This document shows positions 4,244 through 50,461 of a DNA stretch of 64,000 bases, in pieces. Source of the DNA: a virus (lineage: Duplodnaviria; Heunggongvirae; Uroviricota; Caudoviricetes); the IMG/VR virus record IMGVR_UViG_2675903433_000022; one strand, 5' to 3'. The notes under the pieces are model-generated. The model searched no databases and was not told the origin of the DNA. It saw nothing but the letters and a program-made list of their open reading frames with translations. The position numbers and the translations under genes are program-made. The stretch's first letter is position 1. Every line of letters begins with the position of its first letter.

Positions 4244-5803
4244 CTAATCTCGTTTCAGAACTCCAAAATCGAATGCTCCATCAATAGGCAATACACCTTC
4301 TGCAAAGCCAGGTGTGGTGTCGATGATGTGTTTTCGCTCATAAGAGTGAGACAACAGGTATTTGTTGCTAATGTCAATGAAATCAGTGATAAAACACACG
4401 TTTGCCTGATTTTTTTTGGCTCGTAAGCCACGACCGACACGCTGCCTCATTTCAACTTCTGCTTTCCCACCACCAGCAAGAATGACCGCACCAACGCTTG
4501 GCACATCAACACCGACATCCAGAATAGTCGAGCCTATTAAAACATCTATTTCTCCAGACGCTAAACTGTTCAGCTTTGCTTGCCTTGTCGCCTGGTTAGA
4601 TTCCCCATAGATGAAGTCAACTCTAAGGCCGGACTCTTTCATCATTTCCATCAGGATTTGCCCGTGGCGTTTAAGACGAACCAGAGTCATACAATTGAGA
4701 GAATGTTGCTTATAGAGCAATGCTTCGCGAACAATGGCCTCGTTACGTCCCAAATTATACACGATCCCCAACTGATAAGCCTTTTGGTAGGCGGTGCTCA
4801 TACCAACTCTAAAATTGAGGTGTTTGTTGGCAAGTTCGGCCTTGATTCTGGCCTCGTCTGGCTTGTAGGCAACTTTATGATAAAGGAAGTACGGCTTTGC
4901 CAGAATGCCTCGATCAATCAGGTACTTTTCTGTGACTTTAATTTCAATTCGCCCGGCCACCGCCATCAGGCGCATGTTGGCTTCCGTCGAATCCTTCATG
5001 AACGGCGTGGCTGTAAGCGCCAGACGATAGTCTGCGTTCACACATAATCTGGCGATGTCATAGAAATTTGAGCCTGAAGACTCATGCGCCTCTTCCAGAA
5101 TAAGAAGAGAGACACTTGAAAGGAAGCGTTTCACCAACTCCCGACGTTTGAGGTGGTAGCTTTTCTTATCTGGTGTTGCATCGCGTGGTGGTTCTTCGAG
5201 GAAACTTGCAAGAGTTTGAACTGTAGCGACGTTGATATGTCGTGATACCTGGAACTCACCCGAGCCAATGACTCCAACCTTTTGGTCTTTTAACCACGGT
5301 TCGCCATTTTCGGCGCGGTAGTCGATGGATCTCTGGAAGTTTTCGGCCATTTGAAACATCAGAACAGAGCGGGTTGTTAAAAATAATGTCATTCGACCGA
5401 TACGTGCAGCTGCTTTGCAGGCAACGTTAGATTTCCCGCCACCAGTAGCGATCTGCGCAATCATCATTCCCTCTCGAACCAGTGTTTCCACAGTCTGATC
5501 CTGATACGCATAATCAGGATTGTATGGGAATGGGTTAACCGCCGGATTTGGTTTACCAAGCGCCGGGGCTTTGTCTTTGCGGATATGAACACATTTGATG
5601 CCCGCCTTGTTCAAGTTCGCCGCTACAGGCTTGGCAAAGCCAGCAGGGAACGAGTTTTTACTCCAGTTGAACATCGTGCTTGTGCCCTTCCAGTCGCCAG
5701 TCTCGACTTCGTAGCTCAACATTTGCTGCACCAGTTGCTTTACCTTGTCATCTGCGCCAGAAATAAGCGCATTTACTGCGTTAGATACAATCCGAACAGT
5801 CAT
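4244..5803 (-). CDS. SF2 DEAH-like helicase (519 aa)
   Basis: Motif I ATGGGKS, motif II LILEEAHES, motif III LTATPF, motif VI QRVGRGLR. Confidence 0.8.
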   Translation of the reverse strand: MTVRIVSNAVNALISGADDKVKQLVQQMLSYEVETGDWKGTSTMFNWSKNSFPAGFAKPVAANLNKAGIKCVHIRKDKAPALGKPNPAVNPFPYNPDYAYQDQTVETLVREGMMIAQIATGGGKSNVACKAAARIGRMTLFLTTRSVLMFQMAENFQRSIDYRAENGEPWLKDQKVGVIGSGEFQVSRHINVATVQTLASFLEEPPRDATPDKKSYHLKRRELVKRFLSSVSLLILEEAHESSGSNFYDIARLCVNADYRLALTATPFMKDSTEANMRLMAVAGRIEIKVTEKYLIDRGILAKPYFLYHKVAYKPDEARIKAELANKHLNFRVGMSTAYQKAYQLGIVYNLGRNEAIVREALLYKQHSLNCMTLVRLKRHGQILMEMMKESGLRVDFIYGESNQATRQAKLNSLASGEIDVLIGSTILDVGVDVPSVGAVILAGGGKAEVEMRQRVGRGLRAKKNQANVCFITDFIDISNKYLLSHSYERKHIIDTTPGFAEGVLPIDGAFDFGVLKRD

Positions 5804-5848
5804 AAACCTCTTTCCTTAGTGCCTTTTGTATGTTATTTGGCTATTATA

Positions 5849-5868
5849 ATAAGTAAGTGATTACTTAG
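5849..5868. promoter_or_regulatory. palindromic motif site ATAAGTAAGTGATTACTTAG
   Basis: TAAGTAA / TTACTTA inverted arms in divergent region between helicase and ParB-like operon. Confidence 0.4.
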
Positions 5869-6566
5869 TGGATTGTAGCAATAAAATGGATGTAAAAATC
5901 ACGATTTTGCAGGTTGATGTTGCCAACCTTCGCCCGAATACCTGGAACACCAATTCGGTTGGTGCGCAGAATTTTGAAAAACTGAAAGGTTCTATCGAAA
6001 AATTGGGCTTTTTTAAGCCAATTTTGGCTCGTGAACTTGAAGATGGATTTTTTGAAATCCTCGGCGGCGAACATCGCTGGCGTGCTGCTATTGAGCAAGG
6101 AATTTCAACGGTTCCGGTGCTTTCTGTGGGCAAAATTAGCGATGTCGTAGCTAAACAGATGTCACTGGTGGACAACGAGCGATACGGTGAAGACGACCAA
6201 ATCGCATTGCAACGCTTCATTGAAGAAATTCAGTCAGAACTTGACTATCAACTGTCTGAAATCGCCCCGTATGACGACGAAATCTCGATGGTTTTAGCAA
6301 AAGAGGCGGCAATCGACCTTGAAGCACTGGAGGCGTTGTCTCGTGGTAGTGATGAGCCTGTCGATACCGACAAACGAGAGAAAACCGAACGTGTGGGGGC
6401 GGAACATCAGACCATGCGCTTCAAAGTAACTTTCGATGCGTCAGATCGTGTTGCAGAAACCATAAAAAACATCATCAAAGAGCAGGCTATTAACACCGGT
6501 AATGAAATGGAGAACGCTGGTGAGGCTCTGGTGTGGCTGGTCGACTACTACAAGGAGCGTATGTAA
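5868..6566 (+). CDS. ParB/Srx-like N-terminal domain protein
   Basis: ParB box GGEHRWRAA; acidic C-terminal half; true start may be ATG at 5886. Confidence 0.65.
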   Translation: MDCSNKMDVKITILQVDVANLRPNTWNTNSVGAQNFEKLKGSIEKLGFFKPILARELEDGFFEILGGEHRWRAAIEQGISTVPVLSVGKISDVVAKQMSLVDNERYGEDDQIALQRFIEEIQSELDYQLSEIAPYDDEISMVLAKEAAIDLEALEALSRGSDEPVDTDKREKTERVGAEHQTMRFKVTFDASDRVAETIKNIIKEQAINTGNEMENAGEALVWLVDYYKERM

Positions 6567-7234
6567 TGACCAAAAAGTTTGAAATCGTATATCGCGACCC
6601 GGCAGATCTTATTCCCTATGAGATGAATGCCAAAAAGCATGATGAACAGCAGATCCGAGATCTGGCCGCAGCCATTAAAAAGCGCGGATTTGACCAGCCA
6701 ATTACGGTCGATAAGAACGACGTAATTATTACTGGCCACGGCCGCCGTGAGGCTGCAATTTTTGCTGGACTTGAGCGCGTGCCGGTTATTGTTCGCGATG
6801 ATCTCAGTGATGACGAGGTTCGTGCGAAGCGCCTTGAAGATAACCGACTTGCCAGCATTGATTACGATGCAATTAAGCTACAGAAAGAGCTTGAGTCGCT
6901 TGTTCTGGACGATATCGAGGTTTTCGGCTTTGAAGAGCGTGAGTTGAATGTTCTCGTTGGCAGTATGACAGAAGAAATGGACACCGACTCGCTAGTTATC
7001 GATCTTGGCGAAGAAACTAAACGACAGAAGGATGAACACACCGAGATCAGTCGCGAAGTTGCAGCGGAAGAAGTACGTGTTGTCGACGTATTGGGCTTTA
7101 AAACGCTTCCTGCTGGCTCTGCCATTGTTGTTGGTGATTTGCTTGCCCACATGGAAGAAATGACGGGAGAGAGCGGGGTAGACGCATTTGTGGCATATGC
7201 GGAGAAGATCTCTTCCGGGGAGATGGCTGCATGA
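6566..7234 (+). CDS. ParB/Srx-like N-terminal domain protein (second copy)
   Basis: ParB box GHGRREAA; start overlaps previous stop (TAATG). Confidence 0.65.
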   Translation: MTKKFEIVYRDPADLIPYEMNAKKHDEQQIRDLAAAIKKRGFDQPITVDKNDVIITGHGRREAAIFAGLERVPVIVRDDLSDDEVRAKRLEDNRLASIDYDAIKLQKELESLVLDDIEVFGFEERELNVLVGSMTEEMDTDSLVIDLGEETKRQKDEHTEISREVAAEEVRVVDVLGFKTLPAGSAIVVGDLLAHMEEMTGESGVDAFVAYAEKISSGEMAA

Positions 7235-7896
7235 GCAAATACATCATCAACGTATCGTTTCAGACTCGCGTAAATAAAACCACGCGCACATTGGAAATCG
7301 CTGAGTCGTTCGGGCTTGGCCTGGACGAAAAAGAGTGGACGCTTTACGACAATCTGGAGCTGGAAGTGAAGCAGGGCGATGTGGTGTACATCACCGGCCA
7401 ATCCGGTTCCGGCAAATCCGTTGTGCTGCGCGAGTTGCAACGACAGATGAAGGATGAAGGGCTGTCTGTAGCCTCCATCGATGATTTTACCTTCGATAAT
7501 GAGGTTAACGTCATCGATCAGTTGGGCAAAACGACCAGTGATGCGCTTGGGTTGTTATCTATGGCTGGTCTGAACGATGCATATCTGTTTGTTCGCAAGC
7601 CTTCTGAAATGTCAGACGGCCAGAAATATCGTCTCAAGATTGCCAAACTGATTGAGTCAGGCGCTAAAGTGTGGGCTGCTGACGAGTTCGGCGCTGTTCT
7701 CGACCGTGTAACCGCTCAGGTTGTGGCGTCTAACCTCCAGCGTGCCGCTCGAAAGGTTGGTGCGACGGTAATGGTGGCGACGACTCACGAAGACCTGAAG
7801 AACGCGCTGCGCCCGGATATGCAGATCACCAAGCACTACAAAGAACGCGTGAAGGTGGAATATCACAATGGTAGTCATGATGAGGTCCATTCATGA
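7231..7896 (+). CDS. ABC-type ATPase domain protein (221 aa)
   Basis: Walker A GQSGSGKS, signature-like SDGQKYR, Walker B VWAADEFGA, H-loop TTHED; ATGA overlap with upstream gene. Confidence 0.6.
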   Translation: MSKYIINVSFQTRVNKTTRTLEIAESFGLGLDEKEWTLYDNLELEVKQGDVVYITGQSGSGKSVVLRELQRQMKDEGLSVASIDDFTFDNEVNVIDQLGKTTSDALGLLSMAGLNDAYLFVRKPSEMSDGQKYRLKIAKLIESGAKVWAADEFGAVLDRVTAQVVASNLQRAARKVGATVMVATTHEDLKNALRPDMQITKHYKERVKVEYHNGSHDEVHS

Positions 7897-8783
7897 CGGA
7901 CATCATCATTAAACGCTACCGCCCTGAAGAGTTTCCGCGTCATCTGGACTTTCTGGAGCGAATGACTGTTACAAAGGGAACTGTAGAGGACTGGCACGCT
8001 CTTAAGTCGCTTCACTACAAAACAGACGGCAAACCTTTCGCGCCAACTTACTATCGCTGCGAACTTGATGACCGTCTGGTGGGCGTCGTGGTTATGGCTT
8101 ACCCGAAACTACTGTTGGCACCTCGCCACCGCATGTTTCCTAAGTTGAAACCAACCACTAATACCACCGTGGCTAACCAGTACTGGGGTCGGTACGTGAA
8201 TAACAACTTTGCGGTGATCAGTCGCTCAGTTGTGGATACTCAGTATCGTGGCGTAGGCGTCTCTTATCGAATGATTAACCTGGTTAGCAGGATGCATGAC
8301 CGGCCAATCATTGAGATCCAGTCCTCGATGAGCAAATACAATCCCTTCGCCATGAAAGCAGGGTTTAAGTTCATCCGCCCTGAGCGACCGAAGAGCTATG
8401 AAAGTGCACTGCGTGTATTCCAGCGCCATTTCCGTTCCGACCCGGGTGATAACGAGGCGATCGTCAAAGAGTTGTTCGCAATGAGCGAGTCTCGTCGTCG
8501 CCGTGCACTGCGTGATCTGGTGGCGGACTACCACAAGAACAGTTCCCTGGCAAAAGCTGGGCGGAATCGTGGCACTACGATTCAGGACATTGCCGACAGT
8601 CTGGTGGACGAGGCCAGCATTGTGAAGCTGCTCAAGGACATTCACAACCTGAGCTTTACGTCTCCGTTGTATGGTGTGTACCGAAACCCTGACTTTGGCC
8701 GTCGACTGCCTGACACGCTGCCACTGCTGGCATTCGACAAACAACCTTTGGATAAACCGTTAGAAATTGCTTTACCGGCATAA
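7893..8783 (+). CDS. GNAT-fold acetyltransferase-like protein with C-terminal extension
   Basis: Motif resembling acetyl-CoA binding (VVDTQYRGVGVSYRM) and NPFAMKAGFKFI; ATGA overlap with upstream gene. Confidence 0.4.
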   Translation: MTDIIIKRYRPEEFPRHLDFLERMTVTKGTVEDWHALKSLHYKTDGKPFAPTYYRCELDDRLVGVVVMAYPKLLLAPRHRMFPKLKPTTNTTVANQYWGRYVNNNFAVISRSVVDTQYRGVGVSYRMINLVSRMHDRPIIEIQSSMSKYNPFAMKAGFKFIRPERPKSYESALRVFQRHFRSDPGDNEAIVKELFAMSESRRRRALRDLVADYHKNSSLAKAGRNRGTTIQDIADSLVDEASIVKLLKDIHNLSFTSPLYGVYRNPDFGRRLPDTLPLLAFDKQPLDKPLEIALPA

Positions 8784-8792
8784 GGATTTGCC

Positions 8793-9059
8793 ATGACGTT
8801 AACCGACAAACAAAAGGACATCATCAAAACGCTCAATCTCGGTTATGAGCGAGGTCATCTACTTGATCTGGACGAATTGCTTGAAGTTTTGCCGTACAAG
8901 ACAACCAAGCAAAGTATCCAGTTCTCAATTCGCGCTCTGATAAAAAAGGGGCTGGTGGAGAAAGGGCATACGCGCCAACGCAGTGACAATCGCTATCACC
9001 GCCGGACTCTTGGGTTAACCACTTTAGGTCGAGCCAAAGCGAAGTTACTGGTGATGTAA
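8793..9059 (+). CDS. small basic protein, possible winged-helix (88 aa)
   Basis: ORF track; 9 bp after previous gene; basic C-terminus. Confidence 0.35.
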   Translation: MTLTDKQKDIIKTLNLGYERGHLLDLDELLEVLPYKTTKQSIQFSIRALIKKGLVEKGHTRQRSDNRYHRRTLGLTTLGRAKAKLLVM

Positions 9060-9083
9060 TCGGTCTGGGAGCTTATTTAAAGA

Positions 9084-9138
9084 CCTGCTTCTGTATATAT
9101 AAATAATAAGTAACTTATTAAATATATACGGAAGCAGG
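9084..9138. repeat. 55-bp near-perfect palindrome, copy 1
   Basis: CCTGCTTCTGTATATATAAATAATAAGT | AACTTATTAAATATATACGGAAGCAGG; a second copy at 42132..42186 is its reverse complement. Confidence 0.8.
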
Positions 9139-9254
9139 CTTCGTAAGACATGCCAGACCTAATTAAACACCCCAGAAAACAAGTTGGTTAGCAGATGCAG
9201 TAAACAAGTTGTTTTAGAGCGCATGGACGCGCTCTGTGTGTTTTAGAGGGATCT

Positions 9255-9887
9255 ATGACGGTCGAAAAAGACGAGGTAAAAACTCGCCTGACACCAGCGG
9301 AGTGGGCCGAAGCTGAAGCCAAATGGACGTCAGGCGAATATACACTCTCAAAGCTGGAGGAAGAGTACGGCATTCGTCGTGAAACACTCTCCAGACATTT
9401 CAAAAAGCGAGGATTAGAGAAAGGCGCGGACTCTGTTGGGAAGATGGTTCGTGAGTCTCTTAAATCTGACGCAGAGCTTCGCGCTAAAGCCCGTGCGGAA
9501 AAGATAGAAGAACGTCGTACACGTTATGACGGCTGGGCGTATGCGTTGGGGCAGATGGTGATGGTCGAAGTCACTACGGCCAAACGTGAGGGTAAGCCTT
9601 TAGGGGCGATTGAGGATTCTCTCAAGAGCTTACAGAGAGCCAGTAATACCCTTGCAAAATGCTTTGAAGTTTCGTCCAAAGCATTGGGCATGGATCATGC
9701 GGAAAATGACGAGGAAGAAATTCCGAACCTGGTATTTGGTGAGCTTACGCCTTCCCAGGTGGCGAAATTACGTCAGGAAGACGACGAGCCTGAAATCATC
9801 GATGACGAATTGCTTGAGACGTTGGAAGAAGAAGCTCTAAGCGAATTTGATGCGACAGATGATGGAATTGAAGGGGAGGACGAATAA
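9255..9887 (+). CDS. putative terminase small subunit
   Basis: Immediately upstream of and overlapping the terminase large subunit; N-terminal HTH-like region, acidic C-terminus. Confidence 0.45.
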   Translation: MTVEKDEVKTRLTPAEWAEAEAKWTSGEYTLSKLEEEYGIRRETLSRHFKKRGLEKGADSVGKMVRESLKSDAELRAKARAEKIEERRTRYDGWAYALGQMVMVEVTTAKREGKPLGAIEDSLKSLQRASNTLAKCFEVSSKALGMDHAENDEEEIPNLVFGELTPSQVAKLRQEDDEPEIIDDELLETLEEEALSEFDATDDGIEGEDE

Positions 9888-11143
9888 TGGCAATCCCGTC
9901 CTCGCTCAGTCTTGTGCAACTGCATTCTGGACAGATGAAAGTCTTCCAGTCTCCGCATCGATTTAAAGTTGTTTGTGCTGGTCGACGCTGGGGAAAATCC
10001 CGGTTGTCGATCTCCACTATTATTCGTGCGGCGGCAAAGGAAAAAAAGCAAAGAGTCTGGTATGTCGCTCCTACTTACCAGATGGCTCGCCAGATTTTGT
10101 GGGACGATCTACAGGAAGTTCTGCCTCGTAAGTGGGTTAGGAAAAAGAACGACACCACGATGACAATCGTGTTGAAGAACGGTTCGGAGATCGCCCTCAA
10201 AGGTGCTGATAAGCCTGACACTCTGCGCGGCGTAGCGTTGCATTTTGTAGTGCTTGATGAATTTCAGGATATGAAGGCTGACACCTGGTACAAGGTGTTA
10301 CGACCTACTCTTTCATCGACACGCGGCGGTGCACTGATCATTGGTACGCCAAAAGGCTTCTCGGAATTTCACAAACTGTGGACTATAGGCCAGAACGTAG
10401 AGCTGCAAAGAAAGGGACAGTGGAAGAGCTGGCAGTTTGTAACTGCCGATTCTCCGTTTGTACCTACGGCGGAAATTGAAGCTGCTAAGAATGATATGGA
10501 CCCGAAATCGTTCGCTCAGGAGTACCTGGCGAGCTTTGAGAACATGTCCGGGCGCGTTTACTACCCGTTCGATCGTAACGTGCATGTAAAACCGCTTCAG
10601 TTCAACCCTCGGTTGCCTATATGGGTAGGGCAGGACTTCAACATTGACCCGATGTCTTCAGTAATTTTGCAACCTCAGCCAAATGGTGAGCTATGGGCAA
10701 TTGATGAATTGGTGCTCTTTTCCTCTAACACGGCAGAGGTTTGTGATGAGCTTGAGAGACGCTTCTGGCGCTGGAAATCACAGATAACGGTATTTCCAGA
10801 TCCGGCAGGTGCTTATCGCCAACATGCTCGCGGGGAGTCTGACGTCGACATATTCAAAGAGAAGGGATTCTTACGTGTCGATTATTCGAAAAAGCACCCG
10901 CCAATTGCGGATCGTGTTAATGCTGTTAACCGAATGCTGATGACCGCATCTGGAGATATCCGGTTGTATATCGATCCGAAGTGCAAGCATTTGATTGATT
11001 CACTGGAAAAAGTCATCTACAAGCCTGGAACACGAGATATGGATAAGACAGGTGGCATTGAGCATAGTGCAGACGCATTGGGCTATCCAGTACATCGTAG
11101 GTATCCAGTCAAAAACCGTGTTATTCTTGGTGGTTCTCGATAG
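9887..11143 (+). CDS. terminase large subunit
   Basis: Walker A AGRRWGKS near N-terminus; 418 aa; followed by portal-sized gene. Confidence 0.75.
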   Translation: MAIPSSLSLVQLHSGQMKVFQSPHRFKVVCAGRRWGKSRLSISTIIRAAAKEKKQRVWYVAPTYQMARQILWDDLQEVLPRKWVRKKNDTTMTIVLKNGSEIALKGADKPDTLRGVALHFVVLDEFQDMKADTWYKVLRPTLSSTRGGALIIGTPKGFSEFHKLWTIGQNVELQRKGQWKSWQFVTADSPFVPTAEIEAAKNDMDPKSFAQEYLASFENMSGRVYYPFDRNVHVKPLQFNPRLPIWVGQDFNIDPMSSVILQPQPNGELWAIDELVLFSSNTAEVCDELERRFWRWKSQITVFPDPAGAYRQHARGESDVDIFKEKGFLRVDYSKKHPPIADRVNAVNRMLMTASGDIRLYIDPKCKHLIDSLEKVIYKPGTRDMDKTGGIEHSADALGYPVHRRYPVKNRVILGGSR

Positions 11144-49997: not shown

Positions 49998-50072
49998 GAT
50001 GGTGTAGCTCAGCGGTAGAGCAGTTGGCTGTTAACCAACTGGTCGGTGGTTCGAATCCACCCACCATCGCCA
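49998..50072 (+). tRNA. tRNA-Asn (anticodon GTT)
   Basis: Cloverleaf folded by hand: acceptor GATGGTG/CACCATC, D-stem GCTC/GAGC, anticodon loop CTGTTAA, T-loop GGTGG-TTCGAAT-CCACC, then G-CCA. Confidence 0.75.
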
Positions 50073-50074
50073 AT

Positions 50075-50150
50075 GCCGGTTTAGCTCAGTTGGTAGAGCA
50101 CCTGCCTTGTAAGCAGGATGTCAGCGGTTCGAGTCCGTTAACCGGCACCA
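50075..50150 (+). tRNA. tRNA-Thr (anticodon TGT)
   Basis: Acceptor GCCGGTT/AACCGGC, D-arm GCTC-AGTTGGTA-GAGC, anticodon loop CTTGTAA, T-arm AGCGG-TTCGAGT-CCGTT, A-CCA. Confidence 0.75.
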
Positions 50151-50374
50151 ATACAACGATAAGATCATTACGGTTAATCGTCGTTCATGTGCACAATGAC
50201 TGGTCGAAAGGTAGTGATCTTACCGTTGTGGTGGATTCGCAGACTGATGCGATAGCTTTCTTGGATGTTAGGGAAATGCGGCCGCAAATCTTCCCTTTCG
50301 CGAGCGGTGATCGTCCGTAGTCCTAATTGGCTGCACCGTATGCCGGAGATTCAGTACCGGCCACCACAACGGCC

Positions 50375-50461
50375 GGAGAGTAGGGAGCATGGTGCTCAAG
50401 CGGTCTTGAAAACCGTCCCATTGCGCAAGCGATGATGGTTCGATTCCATTACTCTCCGCCA
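50375..50461 (+). tRNA. putative type II tRNA-Ser (anticodon TGA), atypical
   Basis: Acceptor GGAGAGT/ACTCTCC, anticodon stem-loop GCGGT-CTTGAAA-ACCGT, long variable arm, T-arm GATGG-TTCGATT-CCATT, G-CCA; position 8 is A rather than U and D-stem is only 3 bp. Confidence 0.45.

Follow-up and report, generated by a model that had tools for sequence, protein, structure and literature searches.

A candidate split ABC ATPase-GNAT DNA acyltransferase with ParB-like partners next to the terminase genes of an SSU5-type phage-plasmid

To our knowledge, acylation of a DNA base is known from experiments for Mom of phage Mu only, a GNAT-fold protein responsible for an acyl/carbamoylmethyl modification at N6 of adenine that is made late, just before packaging. 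On RNA, TmcA/NAT10 write N4-acetylcytidine with the help of a RecD-like helicase ATPase, a GNAT and a tRNA-binding domain. A system made up of a GNAT and an ABC ATPase has been predicted to acylate a DNA nucleobase and was called "yet uncharacterized" (Iyer et al., Viruses 2021, PMC7824862), with Tenacibaculum phage pT24 as the exemplar. That article credits the prediction to an earlier paper of its own authors (Iyer, Zhang, Burroughs, Aravind, NAR 2013, 41:7635), which we know through the 2021 article; in the literature that we reached we found no experimental characterization of the ABC-GNAT family. A phage thymine dioxygenase, moreover, needs a ParB-like activator on double-stranded DNA only (5mYOX176/ParB176; O'Toole et al., PNAS 2026, PMC13229309); activators of this type comprise a nucleotide-binding and a C-terminal domain, lack a DNA-binding domain and are encoded beside the enzyme. 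Here we analyse 64,000 nucleotides of viral DNA (IMG/VR record IMGVR_UViG_2675903433_000022, Caudoviricetes; the whole stretch is called the window), which at 5868-9059 contain a cassette of five genes, termed g1 to g5 (lengths in amino acids, aa). The cassette fits best as a split form of the computationally predicted DNA-acylation system, and recent work makes the involvement of a ParB-type partner mechanistically plausible.

5868-6566, + strand: g1, ParB/Srx N-domain protein (232 aa from GTG 5868, or 226 aa from ATG 5886)
6566-7234, + strand: g2, second ParB/Srx N-domain protein (222 aa from ATG 6566)
7231-7896, + strand: g3, minimal soluble ABC-type ATPase (221 aa)
7893-8783, + strand: g4, predicted basic GNAT-fold acyltransferase (296 aa)
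8793-9059, + strand: g5, basic winged-helix-like protein (88 aa)

A preliminary description of this DNA, made from the sequence alone, had recognized no described system in this combination of genes. This does not hold, since the ABC-GNAT pair had already been predicted and the record of Escherichia phage Cyrano gives g4 a product name that matches COG2401, which we take to be the architecture of the ABC-ATPase/GNAT pair. The individual assignments fared better: Pfam, PADLOC and PHROG profile searches confirmed the domain calls (ParB_N twice, ABC_tran). The 221-aa nucleotide-binding-domain-type ATPase with a signature-like motif was recovered in g3 (Pfam ABC_tran, 6e-13; phrog_293, 6e-59), where Walker A lies at residue 56, the signature-like MSDGQ at 127, Walker B at 149 and the TTH of the H-loop at 184, and where a D-loop is present too. 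The GNAT-fold assignment of g4 stood as well, as did all five domain calls: the GNAT domain (residues ~20-165) retains the acyl-CoA motif R119-x-x-G122-x-S, and the protein is basic, with a net charge of +12 in its GNAT domain. The Pfam GNAT match is sub-threshold only, and querying PDB sequences with the profile of the g4 family returned nothing meaningful. A conserved helical/beta domain of ~130 aa follows the GNAT domain. The best viral structural match of g4 is Mom; this is a resemblance of fold only, and membership of g4 in the Mom family can be ruled out at the sequence level (hhalign probability 0.3%, E 0.17). Mom also acts without an ATPase or ParB partner and has no counterpart of the extra C-terminal domain.

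That g3 and g4 work together is indicated by their relatives. Searching the g4 family profile against 1.84 billion representative proteins gave 916 matches, 68 of which are at least 330 aa long, and in 67 of these 68 the g4-type GNAT is directly preceded by a g3-type ATPase, which matches g3 of the window with phmmer E values of 1e-15 to 1e-63. The ATPase motifs are invariant across 36 fused homologues, and the catalytic motifs are invariant throughout the g3/g4 family. Since the long homologues fuse both proteins in the order g3-g4, the two genes, as judged from sequence, encode the separated halves of an ABC-GNAT enzyme that elsewhere forms a single chain and is widespread in phages and archaeal elements. 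Likewise, because the ABC and GNAT genes of pT24 are homologous, g3 and g4 belong to the predicted ABC-GNAT system: pT24 gp38 matches the g3 profile (4.9e-30), and pT24 gp37 matches the GNAT part of P12024S_24 (1e-11), which in turn matches the g4 profile (7.5e-7); accession QAX98348.1 was not confirmed as either pT24 protein. Along with this homology we found ABC motifs, the GNAT acyl-CoA motif and an ATPase and a GNAT encoded side by side or fused. The window thus shares with the system of Iyer et al. both protein families, intact ATPase and acyl-CoA motifs and a phage genome as carrier; it differs from the fused enzyme in having split, overlapping genes, two ParB/Srx paralogues and a lineage-specific winged helix-turn-helix protein, and from the system's occurrences elsewhere in that the cassette fills a core slot upstream of TerS in a phage-plasmid lineage.

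Further fusions would tie the ABC-GNAT enzyme to DNA. They join it to ParB_N (P0267 and, as a weaker case, P0223), to family B DNA polymerase (PolB; P0207, on at least 24 contigs, and P0183), to Gins51_C (P0199) and, in Nitrososphaerota, to a TFIIB repeat that follows the GNAT (P0154); together with the replication-module contexts in which some homologues sit, they point to DNA as the substrate. In one viral lineage, PolB-ABC-GNAT forms a single open reading frame (ORF) of ~1260-1310 aa (L117 10001-13783; L072-L074, L091), with Prim-Pol, RecA and 5'-3' exonuclease genes as neighbours in a replication module. The fused protein P0163 (847 aa) carries an intein with a LAGLIDADG homing endonuclease inside its ABC ATPase domain.

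The name "ABC transporter", under which g3-type genes appear in databases, is wrong: no permease gene lies nearby, none of g1-g5 contains a hydrophobic segment (maximum KD19 1.46), the distance from Walker A to the signature is only 71 residues, the helical subdomain is shortened, and no Q-loop Gln is conserved in the g3 family alignment. A transporter is thereby ruled out on the grounds of the missing membrane partner and transmembrane segments and the truncated helical subdomain. This name and "ParB partition protein" are both misleading on the genes of the cassette.

The latter label concerns g1 and g2, in which the preliminary description had rightly seen two tandem proteins with ParB/Srx N-terminal domains (Pfam ParB_N E 3e-13 and 1e-8; motifs GGEHRWRAA in g1 and GHGRREAA in g2). 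They are paralogues, as they are 33% identical over 115 aa. The first matches phrog_723 (2e-79) and, as its best PDB match, Spo0J (1vz0, 2.7e-9); the second consists of a ParB/Srx nucleotide-binding domain and a C-terminal helical domain without a DNA-binding domain. Their ParB_N domains, the PHROG label "ParB-like partition protein" and the choice of SSU5 "parB" as a marker gene in a surveillance study would all suit centromere-binding ParBs that serve plasmid partition or segregation. We regard this function as extremely improbable. Unlike ParABS/KorB CTPase clamps, g1 and g2 contain no canonical helix-turn-helix (HTH) DNA-binding domain, have strongly acidic C-terminal halves (net -17 and -20) and lack a cognate ParA beside them, their neighbours being a helicase and the ABC-type g3, which is not a Walker ParA; on these grounds we ruled out a partition ParB. 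In addition, Cyrano encodes a ParA with a small partner as well as a MinD-like gene away from the cassette, for which reason g1 and g2 would not be the partition ParBs of the element, and ParBs of the same type accompany ABC-GNAT in phages that are not plasmids.

Two other groups of ParB-like proteins come closer. With the ParBs associated with 5mYOX, g2 shares its build of nucleotide-binding and C-terminal helical domain, the missing DNA-binding domain and the place beside an enzyme; some of those ParBs have His or Asp instead of the catalytic Glu of the GERR box, and g2 reads GHGRR there. The difference is that the partner enzyme in the window is a GNAT/ABC ATPase and not an iron/2-oxoglutarate (Fe/2OG) dioxygenase, and that there are two ParB paralogues. 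The ParB domains of g1 and g2 also match the N-terminal ParB of phage ParB_N-DNA methyltransferases (phrog_498; PADLOC MTase_II PDLC03229), g2 reaching 1.7e-31 and 2.9e-17 against such families; unlike there, the cassette has no methyltransferase domain and the ParB module is a separate protein.

In unrelated phages the ABC-GNAT gene is found in the company of ParB genes, terminase genes and candidate genes for donor synthesis or tailoring. Among 80 viral contigs with the fused gene, about 50 carry it directly downstream of TerL (Terminase_6N, 7.7e-15) and three just upstream; locus L115 reads (ParB-like + Zn ribbon)-ABC-GNAT, 158-aa ORF, TerL, portal, MuF. Arrangements in further phages are as follows.

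Gordonia phage Sisko: gp1 ParB, gp2 ABC-GNAT, gp3 formyltransferase, gp4 terminase
Rhodococcus/Gordonia phage Jace (L124 2938-5703): gp85 ParB, gp86 ABC-GNAT, gp87 aspartate decarboxylase/PanD (2e-33), gp88 CoA-transferase III (2e-8)
Leptospira phage LE4: ParB, ABC-GNAT, then terminase genes
Pasteurella phage Pmp13: ParB, ABC-GNAT, then terminase genes
Streptococcus phage Javan511: ParB_N, ABC, 89-aa ORF, ASCH, TerS-like, TerL
Burkholderia phage phiE255 (Mu-like): ABC-GNAT, formyltransferase, past the tail genes
Porphyromonas phage: ABC-GNAT, formyltransferase, past the tail genes

The partner ParBs of these other phages match the g1/g2 profile with E values of 1e-34 to 5e-9; those adjoining the enzyme in Streptococcus and Pasteurella phages are much nearer to g2 than to g1, and the remaining ones favour neither clearly. 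Gene order and homology thus mark ParB followed by ABC-GNAT as a recurrent, sometimes fused, partnership in unrelated phages. Terminase adjacency of ABC-GNAT genes occurs in at least four different arrangements, and the phiE255 gene follows the tail-fibre genes, which is the mom position in Mu; both would be consistent with late timing. As for the acyl donor, gp85-gp88 of Jace plausibly form a self-contained route that could make beta-alanyl-CoA for the GNAT. A short formyltransferase (Formyl_trans_N only) directly follows ABC-GNAT at three loci (L119 597-2464; L120 4971-6703; L128 3456-5059), and those of Sisko and phiE255 are close relatives (E 1e-46), their hosts being unrelated. Many IMG/VR contigs (L036, L037, L043, L045, L047, L062, L064, L067, L070, L083 and others) stop a few hundred bases past the fused ABC-GNAT gene, and where a contig continues, the genes that come next vary and are encoded on the opposite strand; such a stop may mark the end of an operon or the boundary of a variable region, or possibly the end of the genome.

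The same enzyme could in principle act on a protein. ABC-GNAT, helped by ParB, would then acylate a host or phage protein that is bound to DNA or works in replication or packaging, such as a nucleoid protein, a polymerase or a terminase subunit, and thereby switch the cell or the replisome to late functions, and the GNAT fold alone is indeed uninformative on the acceptor, a point that also counts against our preference for DNA. We consider a protein target rather unlikely, as it leaves unexplained why the ABC ATPase and ParB/Srx proteins are retained across many lineages and why PanD, CoA-transferase and formyltransferase genes, which resemble hypermodification pathways, are linked; the net charge of the GNAT domain also suits a nucleic-acid substrate.

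RNA is the other conceivable substrate, in that a TmcA/NAT10-like acetyltransferase for tRNA or rRNA would write N4-acetylcytidine or a related mark and bias late translation. The coupling of an NTP-hydrolysing domain to a GNAT acting on a nucleobase is common to TmcA/NAT10 and the cassette and served us as a working analogy. The phage encodes tRNAs (and, in the Cyrano annotation, MetRS), the linked formyltransferases are remotely related to Met-tRNA formyltransferase, and an ASCH gene follows the ParB-ABC pair of Javan511. ASCH proteins include an N4-acylcytosine amidohydrolase, and for the domain a role in reading or erasing modified or acylated bases has been suggested. Nevertheless we judge RNA a quite improbable substrate: g3 is of the ABC class and not a RecD-like helicase, neither a TmcA-type helicase nor a tRNA-binding domain was found in g3 or g4 (Pfam, NCBIfam), the formyltransferases are short and consist of the N-domain only, and the ParB, PolB and GINS fusions together with the replication contexts indicate DNA. 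The ASCH gene of Javan511 lies at L118 6113-6490, two genes past the pair, in a phage in which the GNAT is apparently missing; CYRAN_64 of Cyrano is an ASCH protein as well and lies outside the window.

We therefore favour DNA as the target and read the cassette as a device for late, post-replicative, ATP-driven and ParB-assisted acylation of phage DNA, to which we assign a probability of roughly 50%. It would be expressed together with, or just ahead of, the packaging genes. An ATP-driven head-to-head dimer of g3 would hold two basic g4 subunits on double-stranded DNA, and g4 would move an acyl group from acyl-CoA to the exocyclic amine of a base. By analogy with the activator of the thymine dioxygenase, g1 and g2 would make double-stranded DNA accessible, and g5 would either target or regulate the complex or serve in packaging-site recognition. 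The modified DNA would then be packaged and resist restriction in the next host. Since the SSU5 lineage contains no gene for donor synthesis, acetyl is the probable acyl group there, or else some other acyl drawn from the CoA pool of the host; elsewhere the donor would vary by phage, Jace using beta-alanyl-CoA, and Sisko, phiE255 and the Porphyromonas phage would carry a formylated adduct. Tentatively, and with somewhat less than even odds, we would name g1-g4 an NTP-driven, ParB-assisted DNA acyltransferase that places an as yet unobserved mark on phage DNA ahead of packaging, which could be N4-acetyl-dC or N6-acyl-dA in SSU5/pHCM2/pMT1, a beta-alanyl group in Jace-like phages and a formylated aminoacyl group in Sisko/phiE255-like phages.

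Several observations besides the uninformative GNAT fold weigh against DNA acylation. No modified base in DNA of SSU5-like phages is reported in the literature reached, and g4 shows no sequence relationship to Mom in the hhalign comparison given above. The cassette of the SSU5 lineage contains neither donor-synthesis nor tailoring genes. As g1 and g2 are strongly acidic and without a DNA-binding domain, their link to DNA is drawn by analogy only. A home-made ParB profile detected no ParB in about 50 to 80 of the 80 viral loci with the fused gene, a count that possibly reflects limited sensitivity of the profile. Finally, the place next to the terminase may be the usual slot at the early/late boundary for miscellaneous genes of DNA metabolism, in which case adjacency would be modular and not functional. 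If DNA acylation is nevertheless true, it would gain a second, mechanistically distinct family after Mom that depends on ATP and ParB, uses phage-specific donors and is present in hundreds of clinical Enterobacteriaceae plasmids. A modification would have consequences for how these elements evade restriction, for their host range and for epigenome calls made from their sequencing data.

Cyrano is 99.3% identical to the window over the 3.2-kb region and Salmonella phage SSU5 85%, which identifies the source of the window as an SSU5-type phage-plasmid. PLSDB holds the cassette in 757 plasmids of Klebsiella, E. coli, Enterobacter, Yersinia pestis and Salmonella, and in 715 of these at least 80% of its length is covered; isolated relatives of the SSU5 lineage infect Pseudomonas, Rhizobium and Stenotrophomonas. 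All five genes are real, as each product aligns with a PHROG family over its whole length (E 1e-45 to 1e-164). The Cyrano record starts g1 at ATG 5886, and for g2 the ORF list extends to GTG 6533, but the PHROG profile aligns residues 1-222 to 1-223 from ATG 6566. A homologue search returned 341 close-to-moderate homologues of g4. Across 30 related loci, from enterobacteria, Xenorhabdus, Photobacterium, Halomonas, Ectothiorhodospira, sphingomonads, rhizobia, Paracoccus and Magnetospirillum and mostly on contigs of ~100-118 kb, the order is always helicase (- strand), g1 g2 g3, zero to three small variable ORFs, g4 g5, TerS TerL portal. Identity to the window is 52-64% for g3, 52-65% for TerL and 37-59% for g4 across the lineage; g1, present in all lineage loci, and g2 retain 26-44% among distant relatives. 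The fixed order in 30 loci and the TerL-like conservation of g3 characterize the cassette, at the level of sequence comparison, as a core, vertically inherited block of the phage and not a mobile accessory island. The co-occurrence of the five genes in relatives, which the preliminary description had proposed to examine, was thereby found (g5 in 29 of the 30 loci).

The conservation of the block bears on a role in anti-phage defence or superinfection exclusion by the phage-plasmid. ABC ATPases are common among defence systems (PMC12839542), and g3 has weak PADLOC matches to mad3/mad8 and PtuA ATPases. PADLOC-DB 2.0, however, gave no system-level match: the matches of g3 are at the level of the P-loop (mad3, 1.8e-13 over ~40 residues; PtuA; others), those of g1 and g2 are to ParB-methyltransferases, and g4 has none. 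As only such generic matches occur, a known PADLOC defence system is ruled out. The cassette also has no effector nuclease or toxin domain, and its fixed position in 30 loci and conservation like that of TerL differ from mobile defence islands, so that we hold a defence module to be highly improbable. Of the candidate functions first listed for the cassette, DNA modification or anti-defence is thus favoured, defence is unsupported in view of the generic PADLOC matches and the core block, and a packaging accessory explains less.

The cassette had also been called translationally coupled. Its five consecutive + strand genes overlap as described (TAATG at 6564-6568, ATGA at 7231-7234 and 7893-7896, and a 9-bp gap ahead of g5), as the ORF list and sequence confirm; tight coupling is not kept among relatives, which carry one to three additional small ORFs between g2 and g3 or g3 and g4. 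In SSU5 itself an 84-aa ORF separates g3 from g4. The slot between g3 and g4 is variable in relatives (L003 6961-7999, L002 7994-8248, L004 7705-7995) and filled by Phage_gp49_66, a RyR-domain protein or ORFs of 84-96 aa without a family match.

The terminase-proximal end of the cassette leads to the packaging genes, with a palindrome in between.

9084-9138, no strand: AT-cored palindrome with 17-nt arms and inner 16-nt arms, between g5 and TerS
9255-9887, + strand: TerS (ORF, Cyrano annotation)
9887-11143, + strand: TerL (ORF, Cyrano annotation; Terminase_6N in related loci)
L017 9167-9252, L021 9085-9166, L027 9127-9209 and L029 2672-2756: inverted repeats of relatives (structure kept, not sequence)

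The fifth gene encodes a small basic protein, as expected from the earlier reading (88 aa, isoelectric point 10.2; phrog_900, 2e-45), with weak winged helix-turn-helix matches to LexA_DNA_bind, Sta1/Lrs14 and CARF-wHTH. In 29 of 30 lineage loci it comes directly after g4, and no other locus has it together with ABC-GNAT genes. It may be a DNA-targeting subunit, a regulator or a packaging-site binder; as it is tied to the lineage and never to ABC-GNAT elsewhere, and as the palindrome adjoins, its task may lie in packaging-site or late-gene control, outside the enzyme proper. The palindrome folds as DNA with -17.3 kcal/mol (z -7.2), and it contains the point at which the linear GenBank entries for SSU5 and Cyrano begin and end, at ~9121 of the window and 62 bp past g5. 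Equally large inverted repeats of unrelated sequence lie at the same place in relatives, with arms of 17-25 nt that are 20-41 nt apart. We take the palindrome as the boundary of the cassette and possibly as a cos/pac or regulatory site.

These features would fit a packaging accessory whose proteins help the terminase to recognize or process cos/pac at the palindrome: TerS and TerL immediately adjoin in several lineages, the structurally conserved palindrome in which the GenBank record ends lies directly downstream, and g5 is small, basic and of DNA-binding type. Nonetheless we think this unlikely, since the enzyme is also fused to PolB and found in replication modules far from the terminase, the phiE255 and Porphyromonas phage copies sit past the tail genes, and it is not obvious what an acyl-CoA transferase accompanied by enzymes of donor synthesis would contribute to cutting DNA; the cassette shows no nuclease motif, and g5, the best candidate for a site binder, is confined to one lineage.

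Between the palindrome and TerS, the segment 9173-9248 contains two 17-nt direct repeats (CAGAAAACAAGTTGGTT / CAGTAAACAAGTTGTTT) and a duplicated TGTTTTAGAG; a GC-rich hairpin (9215-9236) with a T-rich tail behind it is terminator-like and stands just 5' of TerS. In some relatives TerL is interrupted or its N-terminal part is missing in tblastn, with gaps of ~1.3 kb (L009 9905-11267, L015 9927-11392, L023 10554-11876), which suggests inteins, introns or homing-endonuclease insertions.

On its other side the cassette is flanked by a divergent gene.

4244-5803, - strand: UvsW-like SF2 helicase (ORF; Pfam UvsW_N, ResIII and Helicase_C on homologues; synteny in all lineage loci)

The divergent helicase and the palindrome ahead of the terminase, at 9084-9138 before TerS at 9255, are both where the preliminary description had placed them. 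The helicase is a conserved neighbour, which does not imply that it is a member of the module. Inside the 64-bp divergent gap between helicase and g1 there is a perfect TATAAT hexamer at 5845-5850 without a good -35 element; scanning 5600-9400 for promoters and terminators yielded no more matches than shuffled sequence did, and no promoter was called at this hexamer. Further away, a tRNA cluster (Asn-GTT, Thr-TGT, Ser-TGA) at 49998-50461 sits ~1.86 kb beyond the position expected from the Cyrano map, and the window therefore carries an insertion relative to Cyrano somewhere between the cassette and the tRNAs. Outside the window or at its edge, the Cyrano record annotates a second small ABC-type ATPase adjoining DHFR; also annotated there are ThyX, MetRS, a MazG-like protein, a Dam-like methyltransferase, CobT/CobS-like genes and several toxin-antitoxin pairs (KacT-like, HicAB). 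In two distant relatives, a dCMP deaminase gene is located a few genes past the divergent helicase (L003 1108-1569; L004 2695-3183).

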